From Bacillota bacterium (GTDB lineage Bacteria > Bacillota > Ch66 > Ch109), in NCBI GenBank assembly GCA_050952625.1, contig JBMNLH010000001.1, positions 384,001 to 448,000 on the forward strand: 64,000 bases of DNA. The letters are read 5' to 3'. The notes beneath the pieces are model-generated. The model did no database searches and was not told the DNA's origin. It saw nothing but the letters and a program-made list of their open reading frames with translations. The position numbers were made by a program, and so were the translations under genes. How positions within the stretch are numbered: position 1 is the stretch's first letter; every line of letters starts with the position of its first letter. Below, one piece after another: positions 55,028 to 60,749 of the stretch.

Positions 55028-56715
<1,688 letters not shown>

Positions 56716-56889: not shown

Positions 56890-57986
56890 TTTGATCCAGA
56901 TAAAAAGCCAAGGCTTCTAACCAAAGAAGCCGCGGTAAAAAGACTTCCCATAAATTTGGCCAAACCCAAAAGAACCAGGCCAAACCAGATGGAAGTCAAA
57001 CTCGACTAACTAAGCGCAAACCGAAAGCTAGTCGAAACTGAACCCTGAAAACTGCACAGCGAATATAAAAAAAGTTCTGTCAAGCGCAAGCCAAAGGATA
57101 AACCGAAACAAACCTTAAGGTAGAAAGACTAAGGTCAAGCTACTAAGGGCGTACGGAGGATGCCTAGGCGCTAAGAGACGAAGAAGGACGCGGTAAGCTG
57201 CGAAAAGCCTCGGGGAGCCGCAAGCAGGCCTTGATCCGGGGATCTCCGAATGGGGCAACCCAACTGGAGTAATGTCCAGTTACGGCTAACTGAATCCATA
57301 GGTTAGTCGAGACAACCAGGGGAACTGAAACATCTTAGTACCCTGAGGAAAAGAAAACAACAGTGATTCCCCAAGTAGCGGCGAGCGAACCGGGAAGAGC
57401 CCAAACCTCAAGAGTGTCAAAGCCTGCCGGCGTTGCTTTTGAGGGGTAGCGGGACCATCCTGGGCAGCGGCAGCAGCCCAAAGGAGTAAGAAACCATAAT
57501 TCTAGGTGAAGCGGACTGGAAAGCCCCGCCACAGAGAGTAACAGCCTCGTAACCGAAAGGATTATGGCTCCTGGATGGGATCCCAAGTACTGCGGGACAC
57601 GTGGAACCCCGTGGGAATCAGGGAGGACCACCTCCTAAGGCTAAATACTCCTTAGCGACCGATAGTGAACCAGTACCGTGAGGGAAAGGTGAAAAGCACC
57701 CCGGGAGGGGAGTGAAAAAGAACCTGAAACCGTATGCCTACAACCAGTCGGAGCTTTTTCGAAAGAAAGAGTGACGGCGTACTTTTTGTAGAACGGACCG
57801 GCGAGTTACAGTAACTAGCAAGGTTAAGGAAACGGAGCCGAAGCGAAAGCAAGTCTTAAGAGGGCGCAAGTTAGTTGCTGTAGACCCGAAACCGGGTGAT
57901 CTACCCATGACCAGAGTGAAGCGATGGTAAGACATCGTGGAGGCTCGAACCAACCGTTGTTGAAACAGCGGTGGATGAGTTGTGGG

Positions 57987-58028
<42 letters not shown>

Positions 58029-58292
58029 CCCGAAATAGCTTTAGGGCTAGCCTCAAGGCATAATTGATGGGGGTAGAGCACTGAATAGGCTAGGGGCCTT
58101 ACCCGGTTACCGAACCTTCTCAAACTCCGAATACCATCAATCGGACCTTGGGAGTCAGACTGCGAGTGATAAGATCCGTAGTCGAGAGGGAAACAGCCCA
58201 GACCGTCGATTAAGGTCCCCAAGTGTGGACTAAGTGGAAAAGGATGTGGGGTTGCCCAGACAACCAGGATGTTGGCTTAGAAGCAGCCATCA

Positions 58293-58328
<36 letters not shown>

Positions 58329-58375
58329 CCTGCGCCGAAAATTCCCGGGGCTCAAGTCCGCCACCGAAATCACGG

Positions 58376-58582
58376 ATTTTGGTGGTTGGCGGTTAGTGGT
58401 TAGTGGTTGGGAGGAAAGGAAATGGCTGGATATCGGACATTGGAAGTGTATCAAAAGGCATATAAACTGTCTTTAGAAATACACCGTGTCACCCAAACAT
58501 TTCCTGAATTTGAAAGGTATGAATTAGGAAGCATGGTCAAACAAATCCCAACGACCAATTACTAACGACCAACCACCAAAAT
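58376..58582 (+). other. 23S helix-45 intervening sequence (207 nt)
   Basis: Lies between CACCGAAATCACGG and GGTAGGGGAGCGTTC; arms ATTTTGGTGGTTGG...CCAACCACCAAAAT. Confidence 0.92.
58422..58565 (+). pseudogene. Internally deleted four-helix-bundle / 23S rRNA IVP (S23-like) protein
   Basis: GGAGGAAAGGA RBS; MAGYRTLEVYQKAYKLSLEIHRVTQTFPEFERYELGS matches the family N-terminus; the QxRRA...NIAEG core is missing. Confidence 0.85.
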
Positions 58583-59044
58583 GGTAGGGGAGCGTTCCCA
58601 CAGCGTGGAAGTCATCCTGGAAGGGATGGTGGAGCGGTGGGAAGAGATAATGCCGGTATGAGTAAGCGAAAAGGCAGGTGAGAATCCTGCCCGCCGAAAG
58701 CCTAAGGTTTCCTGGGGAAGGCTCGTCCGCCCAGGGTAAGTCGGGACCTAAGCTGAGGCCGAAAGGCGTAGGCGATGGACAACCGGTGGAAATTCCGGTA
58801 CCACCCCAAGCCGCTCGAGCGAAGGGGGGACGCAGGAGGGTAGGCGAAGCGTACCGTTGGTCGAGTACGCGCAAGCTGGTAGGGGGTAAGATAGGCAAAT
58901 CCGTCTTACGTGAACCCTGAGAGGTGACGCCGAGGGAAAACTAAGTACCGAAGTCGCTGAACCCAAACTGCCAAGAAAAGCCTCTAGCAAGGCAAAAGGG
59001 TGCCCGTACCGCAAACCGACACAGGTAGGCGAGGAGAGAATCCT

Positions 59045-59076
<32 letters not shown>

Positions 59077-59272
59077 CGGCAAAATGACCCCGTAACTTCG
59101 GGAGAAGGGGTACCCCGTGTAGCGTGACTATGTGCACATATAGAAGCGTGAGGGGGTCGCAGTGAAGAGGCCCAGGCGACTGTTTACCAAAAACACAGGT
59201 CCCTGCCAAAGCGAAAGCTGAAGTATAGGGGCTGACGCCTGCCCGGTGCTGGAAGGTTAAGGGGAGGGGTTA

Positions 59273-59579
59273 TCCAGCACTCAACCTTGTATATCAATAG
59301 AGGAAAATAAATGCATTACGTTTATGTGCTTAAGAGTGGAGATAAGCTCTATATAGGAAGAACAAGCGACCTAAAAACCAGGATAAAGTCACATAACGAA
59401 GGTATAAACCGCTCAACAAAAGGGCATCAGTGGGAACTGATATATTATGAAGCATATAAATCCCTGAAAGATGCCATAAAGAGAGAAAATCAGCTAAAAA
59501 AACATGGCAATGCCAAGCGATGGCTGAAAGAGCGGATTATACACAGCCTCAAAGGTGATATATAGGGTTGAGTGCTGGA
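59273..59579 (+). mobile_element. 23S helix-68 insertion (307 nt) with a 24-bp terminal stem
   Basis: TCCAGCACTCAACCTTGTATATCA / TGATATATAGGGTTGAGTGCTGGA replaces the short apex between GGGGTTA and GAAGCTCT. Confidence 0.9.
59311..59565 (+). CDS. GIY-YIG endonuclease (84 aa) encoded inside the 23S rRNA gene
   Basis: YVYVL...LYIG.T.DLKTRIKSHN...ELIYYE...AIKRENQLK; GAGG RBS; same strand as the rRNA. Confidence 0.92.
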   Translation: MHYVYVLKSGDKLYIGRTSDLKTRIKSHNEGINRSTKGHQWELIYYEAYKSLKDAIKRENQLKKHGNAKRWLKERIIHSLKGDI

Positions 59580-59601
59580 GAAGCTCTGAACCGAAGCCCC
59601 A

Positions 59602-59686
<85 letters not shown>

Positions 59687-59933
59687 TCTGGGCACTGTCT
59701 CAACGAGGGGCTCGGTGAAATTGTACTACCGGTAAAGATGCCGGTTACCTGCGACAGGACAGAAAGACCCCGTGGAGCTTTACTGCAACCTGATATTGGA
59801 TTTTGGTAGGCAATGTACAGGATAGGTGGGAGGCAGAGAAGCAAGTCCGCCAGGATTTGTGGAGCCAACGGTGGGATACCACTCTTTGTGTACTGAAGTT
59901 CTAACTCGGCCCTGTAAACCAGGGTGAGGACAT

Positions 59934-59969
<36 letters not shown>

Positions 59970-60125
59970 CAAAGCGTAACGGAGGCGCCCAAAGGTTCCC
60001 TCAGAATGGTTGGAAATCATTCGGAGAGTGTAAAGGCAGAAGGGAGCTTGACTGCGAGAGAGACATCTCGAGCAGGGACGAAAGTCGGGCTTAGTGATCC
60101 GGTGGTTCCGAGTGGAAGGGCCATC

Positions 60126-60162
<37 letters not shown>

Positions 60163-60191
60163 TATCTCGCCCAAGAGTTCATATCGACGGC

Positions 60192-60275
<84 letters not shown>

Positions 60276-60280
60276 TACGT

Positions 60281-60323
<43 letters not shown>

Positions 60324-60348
60324 TCGCAGGCGCAGGAAACTTGAGAGG

Positions 60349-60386
<38 letters not shown>

Positions 60387-60438
60387 GCTGGTGTATCAGT
60401 TGTTCCGCCAGGGGCAACGCTGAGTAGCTATGTTCGGG

Positions 60439-60470
<32 letters not shown>

Positions 60471-60749
60471 ACCGGCCTCAAGATGAGGTTTCCCATGGAG
60501 TCAATCCAGTAAGACCCCAGCAAGACTAGCTGGTAGATAGGCCAGGAGTGTAAGAACAGCAATGTTTTCAGCTGACTGGTACTAATCGGTCGAGGGCTTG
60601 ACCTAATTTTCTAACAGTAAGGCGTGAGGTTGACGCTAAGCTATTCCCTGAAGTCTTGGGAGCTAAGGATTGACAGACTCAAAATATTCGCTGTGAAGTT
60701 TTGAAGGTTCAATCTAAAATCCAATATCTAAAATCTAAGAATTAGATTT

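Follow-up and report, generated by a model that had tools for sequence, protein, structure and literature searches.

A probable mobile hairpin cassette encoding a minimal GIY-YIG nuclease in helix 68 of a Bacillota 23S rRNA gene

Introduction

Bacterial rRNA intervening sequences (IVSs) have been known for decades, with their origin and spread still unexplained, and the rRNA insertions of CPR bacteria are only in part introns. The classical IVSs of 23S rRNA reside in helix 9, 25 or 45. In Salmonella, Leptospira and Coxiella, they replace the tip of a 23S hairpin and have a long stem at their ends, they are sporadic among rrl copies and taxa, and they exist in ORF-less and ORF-bearing forms, some of the latter encoding the four-helix protein 23S_rRNA_IVP. 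The element described here, from a 64,000-nt stretch of a Bacillota genome (the window), shares these traits, and it has relatives at both H25 and H45. It differs from classical IVSs in its location, helix 68 (H68), in its ORF, which codes for a GIY-YIG nuclease and not a four-helix protein, and in its arms, which bear a motif conserved across sites and phyla. As for excision by RNase III, it is established for classical IVSs and presumed for this element. In their passages on rRNA insertions, Pei et al. 2009 (PMC2672173) name H25 and H45 as IVS sites and describe IVSs and transposon insertions in 23S genes, with no GIY-YIG protein among them.

GIY-YIG ORFs have been noted in non-intron rRNA insertions of CPR bacteria (Tsurumaki et al. 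2024, J Bacteriol, PMC11270868, citing Brown et al. 2015). These insertions are spread over several sites whose target sequences are poorly conserved, most of them at the top or base of a stem-loop, and like the window element they match no group I or group II model. They come from CPR bacteria only, and the passages of the main text devoted to them give no element anatomy, terminal repeats, clade structure or hosts other than rRNA. In contrast, the window element belongs to a distinct clade that dwells in 23S genes. An earlier reading of the locus from its letters alone (the sequence-only reading) had stated that no characterised system of this architecture was known, which was too strong in view of the CPR insertions. 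Our literature searches on the architecture found nothing beyond that study, whose supplementary position lists may include a site near 1870; the papers listed for GIY-YIG proteins and RNase P RNA insertions all dealt with organelle genomes, and those on IVSs at helix 68 were unrelated work. GIY-YIG ORFs in non-intron CPR rRNA insertions were already on record; what is newer here is the pattern across the family.

The group I introns of 23S genes that carry homing endonucleases (LAGLIDADG enzymes at about 1917 and 1931, I-TevI-type enzymes in phage introns) are similarly selfish, with a nuclease ORF on the host transcript. Unlike them, the window element has no ribozyme, its enzyme is of the Slx1 type without a DNA-binding domain, and it sits in a variable hairpin tip and not in the conserved functional core; its family has many unrelated targets. 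Enzymes of the I-TevI type consist of a catalytic domain, a linker and a DNA-binding domain and are found in introns or inteins or as free-standing phage genes, and the element protein has neither this make-up nor this setting. It resembles the UPF0213 proteins BH0048 (1zg2) and EF2693 (1ywl), the 'minimal variant' of Dunin-Horkawicz et al. 2006 (PMC1564403), which have about 85-107 aa, no auxiliary domain and no conserved Asn after the catalytic Glu. In contrast, those proteins are described as free-standing genes, and the passages of that paper on them mention no link to a repeat or to stable RNAs.

The element resembles insertion sequences and transposons in that copies at different sites keep conserved terminal inverted repeats. 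An analogy can also be drawn with REP/RAYT (REPIN) systems and MITEs, in which inverted palindromic repeats enclose a small gene of a nuclease type. ORF-less hairpins persist in REP/RAYT systems as they do here, in the form of 81-nt copies and of short solo palindromes beside the ORF at loci L048 and L078. The element enzyme is nevertheless a GIY-YIG and not an HUH protein, and its sites lie in or beside RNA genes instead of being dispersed between genes.

The insertion and its anatomy

The element replaces a terminal hairpin of a stable-RNA gene, in sense orientation (Table 1). Its host 23S gene is 3473 nt long for a model of 2925 positions and thus carries several insertions. Relative to the empty rrl copy of the same genome (G000:C1:1274744-1278183), the 8-nt apex GCGCAAGC, between GGTTA and GAAGC, has been swapped for the element. 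Aligned to E. coli rrl, this apex corresponds to about positions 1862-1869, which in the usual helix numbering is the tip of H68. The sequence-only reading had the right hairpin tip, and its position, near 1866-1876, was a few bases off. No target-site duplication was found at the rRNA sites of the family, and at H68 the host apex is replaced.

Table 1. Features of the H68 insertion and its host gene, in window coordinates.
Feature	Position	Strand	Basis or sequence
Host 23S rRNA gene	57133..60605	+	Rfam RF02541, 2876.8 bits, model 1-2925, full-length bacterial LSU
Element: 307-nt insertion in helix 68 (H68)	59273..59579	+	Comparison with the genome's 4 other rrl copies
5' arm of the 24-bp stem	59273..59296	+	Fold
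Conserved terminal inverted repeat core, 5' arm	59274-59285	+	CCAGCACTCAAC
Ribosome-binding site GAGGA	59300..59304	+	6 nt 5' of ATG, read from the sequence
84-aa GIY-YIG nuclease ORF	59311..59565	+	ORF list, Pfam PF01541
3' arm of the stem	59556..59579	+	Fold, covariation
Conserved terminal inverted repeat core, 3' arm	59567-59578	+	GTTGAGTGCTGG

Direct reading and the computed fold agree on a 24-bp stem between the arms, with 22 Watson-Crick and 2 G-U pairs; the minimum free energy of the fold, -110.8 kcal/mol (z = -8.5), was equalled by 0 of 100 shuffles. Between the arms there is only a 14-nt leader, from the arm to the ATG, and the ORF, whose TAG stop codon (59563-59565) falls within the 3' arm. 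The inserted hairpin of the sequence-only reading is hence real, and its intact ORF with a ribosome-binding site and a stop codon in the stem stands as well. This is the sole ORF of the element and consists of a GIY-YIG domain; no transposase of a known class is encoded. An intron was considered and dropped, as Rfam scans of the 23S region at gathering thresholds, and of positions 57000-60700 with permissive filters up to E <= 10, returned no group I or group II match; the loop had already been judged too small for such a core.

A minimal Slx1-type protein under purifying selection

The 84-aa protein matches the Pfam GIY-YIG family (PF01541) over residues 1-68 with an E-value of 4.5e-15 (56.1 bits for a cut-off of 22.6), and it matches no NCBIfam family at E <= 0.01. 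All 34 sequences compared share residues Y5, Y14, G16, R24, H28, R58 and E59, which presumably represent the catalytic tyrosine-motif, Arg, His/Tyr and Glu residues, while none of the Asn residues after E59 is invariant. There is no auxiliary or DNA-binding domain, and the relatives are mostly as short (81-94 aa). In a profile search of the PDB, structures of UPF0213 proteins came first (1zg2, 9.7e-14; 1ywl, 7.9e-9), followed by weaker matches to SLX1 (5.7e-4) and then to I-TevI (3.3e-3). By these profiles, and by the features that the relevant passages of PMC1564403 give for the Slx1/UPF0213 branch, a minimal domain and no conserved C-terminal Asn, the protein is classified as a minimal Slx1/UPF0213-type GIY-YIG domain and not as an I-TevI-type homing enzyme. 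At E <= 1e-3, 24,296 cluster representatives match the family profile, and 4,616 still do at E <= 1e-10. Our literature search found no test of nuclease activity for prokaryotic Slx1-like proteins. The nearest named protein is from Pelotomaculum propionicicum (80%), which places the window genome outside CPR.

Among 15 pairs of ORFs that yielded a dN/dS ratio, 14 gave values of 0.056-0.314, including 0.196 for the window ORF and that of L112, and a near-identical pair gave 0.75; two further pairs were saturated and one was identical. Such ratios indicate that the ORF is a genuine gene kept by purifying selection, as the sequence-only reading had supposed. In 30 of the 33 aligned elements, GGAG, GAGG or AGGA is present within a 15-nt stretch whose end is 4 nt short of the start codon. 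With a ribosome-binding site of its own and rRNA-resident relatives that are all in sense orientation, the ORF is most plausibly translated from the rRNA transcript, which had been proposed to serve as its mRNA.

Conserved ends and a stem selected as RNA

We aligned 33 elements from four 23S helices (H25, H45, H68 and H98). Mean column identity is 0.86/0.82 for the repeat (0.86 in the 5' arm), 0.72 for the ORF and 0.55-0.62 for the host flanks, and the C-A-C/G-U-G core base pairs are present in at least 28 of the 33 rows. The repeat core is conserved across these four helices and 16S, and the distant relatives in RNase P RNA or adjoining tRNA genes have a related repeat, in which a run of C is followed by CAC. 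It is the ends of the element that are conserved and not a target sequence. Common descent and a constraint at the RNA level could suffice to explain the conservation of the repeat, with no need for recognition by the nuclease.

Compensatory changes affect 22 of the 24 stem pairs, and the observed values were matched in 0 of 500 shuffles; 88.9% of the cells can pair, versus 34-40% in slid controls. The non-Watson-Crick cells, read on the rRNA strand, comprise 55 G-U versus 11 A-C in the 30 rows left once 3 rows out of register are dropped, and 59 versus 23 in all 33 rows. The 3' arm is not in register in L132, L136 and L153, from H25 or H68. Covariation and G-U excess of this order show, at the level of the alignment, that the long helix formed by the element ends is selected as RNA, on the rRNA strand.

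Relatives in 23S, 16S and other RNA genes

Among 160 related loci and the window, 46 are inside rRNA genes, 46/46 of them in sense orientation: 17 in H68, 9 in H98, 8 in H25, 4 in H45, 3 in other places of the 23S gene and 5 in 16S. The best 17 metagenome matches are all in 23S genes. In a tree of 159 rows, a single clade of 41 rows (SH-aLRT 95) contains all 38 H25, H45, H68 and H98 rows, with insertion sites mixed at depth and consistent within subclades; with 86 columns and a quick search behind the tree, it is uncertain how often the site was switched. The unit of repeat and ORF recurs at 23S H25, H45, H68 and H98 and in 16S. The sequence-only reading had advised a search for other H68 insertions with GIY-YIG ORFs and a test of arm covariation; such insertions exist, their arms covary, and the same clade occupies the three other 23S helices as well. 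Carriers at H68 include named Bacillota and a Candidatus Saccharicenans MAG. Named carriers are Lagierella massiliensis at H68, Desulfofundulus thermosubterraneus DSM 16057 at H98 and Deferribacter thermophilus at H25, and Thermoanaerobacterium thermosaccharolyticum and Pelotomaculum propionicicum carry relatives too.

The distant relatives, mostly from CPR bacteria, are found inside RNase P RNA, just 5' of tRNA genes, or in 16S; the CPR members in 23S and 16S are L059, L066, L044, L095 and L109. A CR-I motif is present beside the ORF at 11 scanned loci, 7 of which have an RNase P RNA match (L064, L065, L069, L090, L094, L146 and L166) and 4 of which do not (L043, L092, L096 and L167); L182 has such a match with no CR-I motif flagged. 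L064 is a clean 291-nt insertion in the P9 loop of RNase P RNA and the only one to align cleanly around the insertion. At the P3-type loci the 5' part of the model is forced onto the element, and the P3 placement is a reading of the flanks.

For 24 of the 114 non-rRNA loci, a tRNA gene on the same strand starts between -9 and +44 nt from the stop codon. Loci located 5' of tRNA genes show a partial copy of the 5' end of the tRNA. Five small genomes harbour 4-8 family copies each. Closer to the window genome, the six other genomes of the same class contain no close homologue, and the conserved 23S stretch itself is missing there; 19 weaker homologues (29-49% identity) from the same phylum include none in rRNA and one with a tRNA in the fetched stretch.

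Five rrl copies, four states

Aligning the rrl copies within the genome, a check suggested by the sequence-only reading, revealed sporadic presence, with four states at H68 among the five copies. Beside the intact element, there are two hairpins of 81 nt that have the same arms and lack the ORF (fold z = -8.4), one empty site, and one 169-nt remnant collinear with the intact element (alignment score 123.6 versus 45.9 +/- 5.5 for shuffles). Its GC content is 69%, versus 39% for the intact element. The five copies form a decay series, in which the element decays in place to ORF-less hairpins and GC-rich remnants. On contig C4, the degraded copy is still present with no clean stem (fold z = -1.3), and hence a retained H68 insertion may be tolerated, or that rrl copy may be defective.

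With up to one mismatch allowed, the 12-nt repeat core occurs in pairs only at rrl H68 in the whole genome, its other matches being single ones with one mismatch. The repeat is confined to H68 and an empty allele persists; there is no sign of current mobility in this genome. The genome also harbours a classical IVS in H45. One copy of this IVS has an intact 23S_rRNA_IVP ORF (Pfam, 7.2e-35), and other copies are truncated forms. The arms of that IVS are quite unlike those of the element, which indicates that the conserved motif is not a general requirement of RNase III.

Proposed reading and alternatives

We consider it probable that the insertion is an IVS-like mobile hairpin cassette, composed of a terminal inverted repeat, a leader with a ribosome-binding site and an Slx1/UPF0213-type GIY-YIG gene. 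Such a cassette would have no promoter of its own and would be transcribed within the pre-rRNA, where the 24-bp stem, stacked on H68, might be cut by RNase III as in the classical IVSs, whose H25 and H45 sites the family also occupies. The products would be a fragmented, working 23S rRNA (about 2.1 + 1.0 kb) and an RNA of about 300 nt that could serve as mRNA. The nuclease might drive spread at the DNA level by acting on the hairpin ends of its own cassette or on a hairpin or cruciform structure, and not on one target, and insertions would survive only at terminal RNA hairpins that can be swapped harmlessly and are under strong host transcription. The data support the sequence-only reading in its view of a selfish-looking, intron-less element made tolerable in rRNA by its own stem.

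More tentatively, the family might represent an unrecognised class of mobile elements, hairpin cassettes with a conserved repeat and an Slx1-type nuclease that move among the terminal hairpins of stable RNAs as the nuclease acts on ends or hairpins. Its range would then extend over 23S H25, H45, H68 and H98, 16S, the P3 and P9 elements of RNase P RNA, the 5' side of tRNA genes and the vicinity of tmRNA. If so, a new mobility mechanism would be at hand, together with a concrete origin for at least part of the bacterial IVSs and of the CPR rRNA insertions. A nuclease that acted on cassette ends or on hairpins as such would move DNA in a way not described before, and the widespread minimal Slx1-like GIY-YIG proteins of prokaryotes would gain a first function. 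The window element offers a compact and testable model for the origin and spread of rRNA IVSs. The cassettes add length to the genes of rRNA and RNase P RNA and fragment them, which also affects rRNA-based annotation, binning and measures of RNA integrity.

The sequence-only reading had favoured classical homing, with the GIY-YIG enzyme cutting the empty H68 site of rrl and repair copying the element from an occupied allele. GIY-YIG is a known homing-endonuclease fold, to which the Pfam match assigns the protein, 4 of the 5 rrl copies have the element or a derivative, ORFs resident in H68 form site-consistent subclades, and the rRNA flanks are conserved enough to provide homology for repair across species. 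However, the protein has only 84 aa and no DNA-binding domain, and by profile it groups with Slx1/UPF0213 rather than with I-TevI. The repeat-plus-ORF unit is present at four 23S helices and in 16S, between flanks that have no sequence in common, and conservation lies in the element ends instead of the targets. Moreover, an empty allele coexists with the ORF-bearing one in the genome, though a difference at one covarying base pair close to the site might confer resistance on the empty allele. Homing at H68 is thus unlikely in our view, and Tsurumaki et al. voice the same doubt for CPR bacteria (PMC11270868).

We think it rather improbable, too, that the hairpin is an expansion segment retained in mature 23S rRNA, with a domesticated gene that simply draws on the strong rRNA promoter and whose product serves the host, perhaps in the metabolism of stable RNA or of DNA. 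H25, H45 and H98 are sites of expansion segments in eukaryotes. Purifying selection on the ORF would fit a host function, and the GC-rich remnants resemble structured rRNA more than decaying junk. As for what that function might be, a passage in Dunin-Horkawicz et al. 2006 (PMC1564403) takes a fusion to a tRNA methyltransferase as a hint that Slx1-like proteins of prokaryotes might have a role in RNA metabolism. Against domestication, the element is patchy across the rrl copies of one genome and across distant phyla, small genomes contain several copies, and ORF-less derivatives occur. Genes with host functions are not normally located inside hairpins of rRNA or RNase P RNA, and a 300-nt, AT-rich, mRNA-like loop would be odd as a permanent feature on the side of H68 that faces the subunit interface.

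The hint of RNA metabolism for the family in PMC1564403 also bears on a third alternative, that the protein binds or cleaves the stem in the transcript, like a maturase or the endonuclease of a self-excising IVS, and leaves DNA alone. The G-U excess indicates selection of the stem on the RNA strand, the conserved repeat would offer a specific binding site on RNA, and all hosts are stable-RNA genes. Nevertheless, an RNA role alone leaves the arrival at new sites unexplained, and the genome has an RNase III gene (rnc homologue), whose product would suffice for excision. To our knowledge, the characterised GIY-YIG enzymes all act on DNA, and we regard this alternative as very improbable.

Assembly check and RNA-library contigs

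That the insertion is an artefact of assembly, or an unrelated gene fused to an rRNA contig, can be practically dismissed. Misassembly had been named by the sequence-only reading as a possible refutation. Assembly of rRNA operons is difficult and the genome has one truncated rrl copy, but an independent metagenome contig (L111) has an identical ORF (100% aa) in the same 23S context, the stretch is present in many DNA runs, dozens of homologous insertions occupy the same place in named genomes, and other rrl copies have derivatives with the same arms. In 14 runs labelled 'DNA?' (X1-X14), 0.68-0.84 of the sampled words are present; the 22 rows of runs with the stretch derive from 18 studies, and the best-matching run may be the source sample.

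Metatranscriptome contigs from four runs (X15-X18) were placed on positions 58950-59900. Bins in the flanks reach thousands to hundreds of thousands, summed over the conserved rRNA of many organisms. Contigs of this kind cannot show RNA ends, and they break where the arms are common to other copies. In 4/4 runs, the interior of the ORF is covered by single contigs at a depth of 3.3-10.4. Contig joints that skip the insertion have other apex letters, and hence come from other organisms or copies.

A coding hairpin in helix 68 of 23S rRNA

In the complete 23S rRNA gene (rrl) of the window, a 307-nt block replaces the 8-nt apex GCGCAAGC found in an empty rrl copy of the same genome. Alignment to E. 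coli rrl places this apex at ~1862-1869 in E. coli numbering, presumably the tip of helix 68 (H68). The terminal 24-nt segments of the block pair with each other throughout, two of the pairs being G-U, and the element folds well beyond shuffled sequences (z = -8.5). The stem arms enclose a 14-nt leader, in which GAGGA stands 6 nt 5' of the ATG, and then an 84-aa ORF matching Pfam GIY-YIG (E 4.5e-15). The sequence-only reading had described a 307-nt H68 insertion with a 24-bp stem, an RBS and an 84-aa GIY-YIG ORF, and this proved correct wherever checked. Its claim that a group I/II ribozyme core is lacking also stands, as intron models gave no match to the 23S region even at E <= 10.

Coordinates of the features discussed (G000 is the window's own genome, C1 one of its contigs; L-numbers denote loci of relatives or fetched stretches)
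Feature	Location	Basis
Complete bacterial 23S rRNA gene	window 57133-60605	Rfam match
Insertion, 307 nt, interrupting the helix 68 tip	window 59273-59579	sequence
GIY-YIG ORF, 84 aa, TAG stop within the 3' arm	window 59311-59565	ORF list and Pfam
Classical H45 intervening sequence, window	window ~58378-58581	
Classical H45 intervening sequence, C1	G000:C1:1275988-1276459 = L007:331-802	
ORF-less 16S hairpin insertion, ~146 nt, 16S position ~70-100	window 55099-55244	
Fifth rrl copy	G000:C1:1300127-1301602 (L005)	
Second insertion in 23S of Candidatus Saccharicenans, ~1.47 kb, E. coli 1917-1931	L031:4309-5780	
RNase P RNA locus with a clean 291-nt ORF-bearing insertion in the P9 loop	L064:3898-4550	

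Decay among the rrl copies

The assembly (2.9 Mb, 9 contigs) contains five rrl copies, and the element is intact in one, that of the window. Two others (on contig C7 and at 1.30 Mb of C1) hold an 81-nt ORF-less hairpin with the arms of the intact element (fold z = -8.4). The C4 copy has a 169-nt remnant at H68, 69% GC, which still aligns collinearly with the intact element (score 123.6 versus 45.9 +/- 5.5 for shuffles) and has lost the clean stem (fold z = -1.3). The site is empty in the most divergent of the five copies. These states form a decay series from a single insertion at a single site; a genome-wide search found the paired 12-nt repeat core nowhere apart from H68.

The copy at 1.30 Mb is truncated and adjoins an IstB-like ORF. 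Only its 3' part is present, starting at position 1771 in the numbering of the window's 23S, together with the 5S region, and it has no 16S gene. The ORF, which from its motifs we take to encode an IstB-like ATPase (IS21-type helper), ends ~700 nt upstream, so an insertion sequence or a rearrangement may have truncated the copy.

A clade resident in 23S rRNA genes

A word-based protein search found 33 proteins, the majority from short contigs; among those with a named source, the nearest is from Pelotomaculum propionicicum (80% identity). Alignment-based scans yielded 80 loci each from species-representative genomes and metagenomes; their sites were mapped on the 23S and 16S of this genome and expressed in E. 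coli numbering. Including the window, 46 of 161 rows lie inside rRNA genes, all 46 in sense orientation: 17 at H68, 9 at H98, 8 at H25, 4 at H45 (one assigned by a single flank), 3 elsewhere in 23S and 5 in 16S. The best 17 metagenome matches all fall in 23S. The named carriers have the element at H68 (Lagierella massiliensis, with two copies, and a Candidatus Saccharicenans MAG), H98 (Desulfofundulus thermosubterraneus) and H25 (Deferribacter thermophilus). The assemblies of the nearest relatives of the window's genome lack 23S. The 23S with the H68 cassette of Candidatus Saccharicenans has a second insertion, at a place where group I introns are known to occur.

A quick maximum-likelihood tree of 159 rows, omitting L040 and L061 (stop in the extracted frame), places all 38 H25, H45, H68 and H98 rows in one 41-row clade (SH-aLRT 95). 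Its other three rows are L033, a 350-nt contig, and the identical pair L176/L177. Sites form consistent yet interleaved subclades, with five changes for H68 and three each for H98, H25 and H45, in a tree of 86 columns whose deep branching order is unreliable.

Terminal repeat, stem and nuclease gene

In an alignment of 33 distinct elements from these four helices, the columns of the two repeat cores average 0.86 and 0.82 identity, those of the ORF 0.72 and those of the host flanks 0.55-0.62. The boundaries of conservation are those of the stem, and the arms are part of the element. The core, a C-run then G-C-A-C, plus its mirror, occurs in at least 28 of the 33 rows and also in 16S insertions and spacer copies. 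The element takes the place of the host's entire terminal hairpin at every site, leaving neither remnant nor duplication. The arms of the H45 intervening sequence (IVS) and of one 16S insertion in the same genome are very unlike those of the element, so the motif is element-specific rather than a general requirement of host processing.

Over the 24 pairs, 88.9% of stem cells are paired; sliding the partner by 1-3 columns lowers this to 34-40%. Changes on both sides are seen in 22 of the pairs. None of 500 shuffles matches the observed values; as kinship inflates the shuffle test, the slid control is safer. Non-Watson-Crick cells read on the rRNA strand comprise 55 G-U and 11 A-C in 30 rows, L132, L136 and L153 being omitted because their 3' arm is out of register (59 versus 23 in all 33 rows). 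A pure DNA palindrome would lack this asymmetry; the stem is selected at the RNA level.

Pairwise dN/dS of the ORF is 0.056-0.314 in 14 pairs; of the others, one near-identical pair gives 0.75 at dS 0.04, two are saturated and one is identical. An RBS-like motif precedes the ORF in 30 of 33 elements. The ORF is a living gene under purifying selection.

By the family profile, the closest structures are those of the UPF0213 proteins 1zg2 and 1ywl, followed by SLX1 and then I-TevI; the profile retrieves 24,296 cluster representatives at E <= 1e-3 from the whole library (4,616 at E <= 1e-10). The protein is a bare domain. Dunin-Horkawicz et al. 2006 (PMC1564403) describe prokaryotic Slx1-like proteins as a minimal variant that lacks auxiliary domains.

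Family members outside rRNA genes

We screened 114 sampled loci outside rRNA genes (L088 also omitted). The median flanking-duplex energy of 103 'free' loci is -39.0 versus a control mean of -24.2, most loci beating shuffled controls, and the ends are related (C-run then CAC). A same-strand tRNA gene starts -9 to +44 nt from the stop codon at 24 loci, an RNase P CR-I motif adjoins the ORF at 15, and 75 have neither. Rfam RNase P RNA models match at 8 of 20 loci scanned, and 4 motif-bearing loci are without a match.

In CPR-type genomes, RNase P RNA genes hold or abut a cassette at L064, L065, L069, L090, L094, L146, L166 and L182. Several cassettes ending directly 5' of the CR-I stretch read as replacements of the P3 hairpin. 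Literature searches did not retrieve a description of the cassette in RNase P RNA genes.

Others lie directly 5' of same-strand tRNA genes (L184, L097, L070, L076, L160, L055, L039, L075, L077, L089 and others). Several have a partial copy of the tRNA 5' end upstream and a 3' repeat overlapping the first tRNA bases. In these cases the cassette seems to have entered the tRNA 5' region and the gene to have been regenerated, an arrangement that could hold the clue to the insertion mechanism.

Many 'free' copies on Saccharibacteria- or Paceibacteria-type contigs are without a flanking stem and have nearby one repeat-like motif (ACCCGCACAC...) or a short, lone palindrome of that motif, upstream of the ORF in L048 and L078 and downstream in L038, L054, L062, L130, L140 and L156. 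These may be ORF-less hairpins, or ends that were rearranged.

Five small genomes (0.6-3.4 Mb) have 4-8 copies each. Among 20 loci fetched from them, 13 have tRNA, RNase P RNA, tmRNA or 23S around them or within 200 nt, 1 lies beside a group I intron and 6 have nothing near. A group I intron match (Rfam, 75.4 bits) lies ~120 nt upstream of a more distant member, L209 (G063:C33), so some relatives may be associated with introns.

Proposed mode of spread

Repeat, RBS and ORF constitute a discrete unit that replaces terminal hairpins of stable-RNA genes, always in sense orientation, and decays in place. We think that it is probably a mobile hairpin cassette. The element would be transcribed along with its host RNA, RNase III would cut the stem as in classical IVSs, the released RNA would be the mRNA for the nuclease, and the nuclease would promote DNA-level spread via the conserved ends or the hairpin structure. 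We infer cleavage by RNase III from the presence of rnc in the genome and from the occupation of classical IVS sites by family members.

The sequence-only reading had proposed classical homing, with the nuclease cutting empty H68 alleles. An empty site does exist in this genome, and the family occupies several helices; we consider such homing unlikely. GIY-YIG ORFs in non-intron rRNA insertions have been reported from CPR bacteria, where homing was judged unlikely as a means of spread (PMC11270868). A retained, domesticated segment is slightly less likely still. That the protein acts at the RNA level is improbable. An artefact is hardly credible.

Neither literature searches nor the accessible text of PMC11270868 yielded an H68 site in a non-CPR genome, a clade resident at four 23S helices, conservation of the terminal repeat, the stem's signature on the RNA strand or an association with genes for RNase P RNA and tRNA. 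The possible interpretation of the whole family as mobile cassettes would be more novel than the window's element alone.

Other rRNA insertions in the genome

A classical IVS occupies H45 in all four full-length rrl copies. Its 130-aa ORF, for the four-helix protein 23S_rRNA_IVP (Pfam 7.2e-35), is intact in the divergent copy and truncated in the window's and C4 copies; in the C7 copy, GC-rich sequence has taken the place of the interior. The H45 and H68 systems thus behave alike, sharing a pattern of decay.

Three of four 16S copies have the ORF-less hairpin of ~146 nt, presumably in the helix 6 region, where the divergent copy has 28 nt. Its arms are GGTTAGTGG-type repeats, as in the H45 IVS arms of the same genome, which places that IVS type at two rRNA sites. 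Near its 3' end, the divergent 16S copy carries a separate insertion of ~115 nt.
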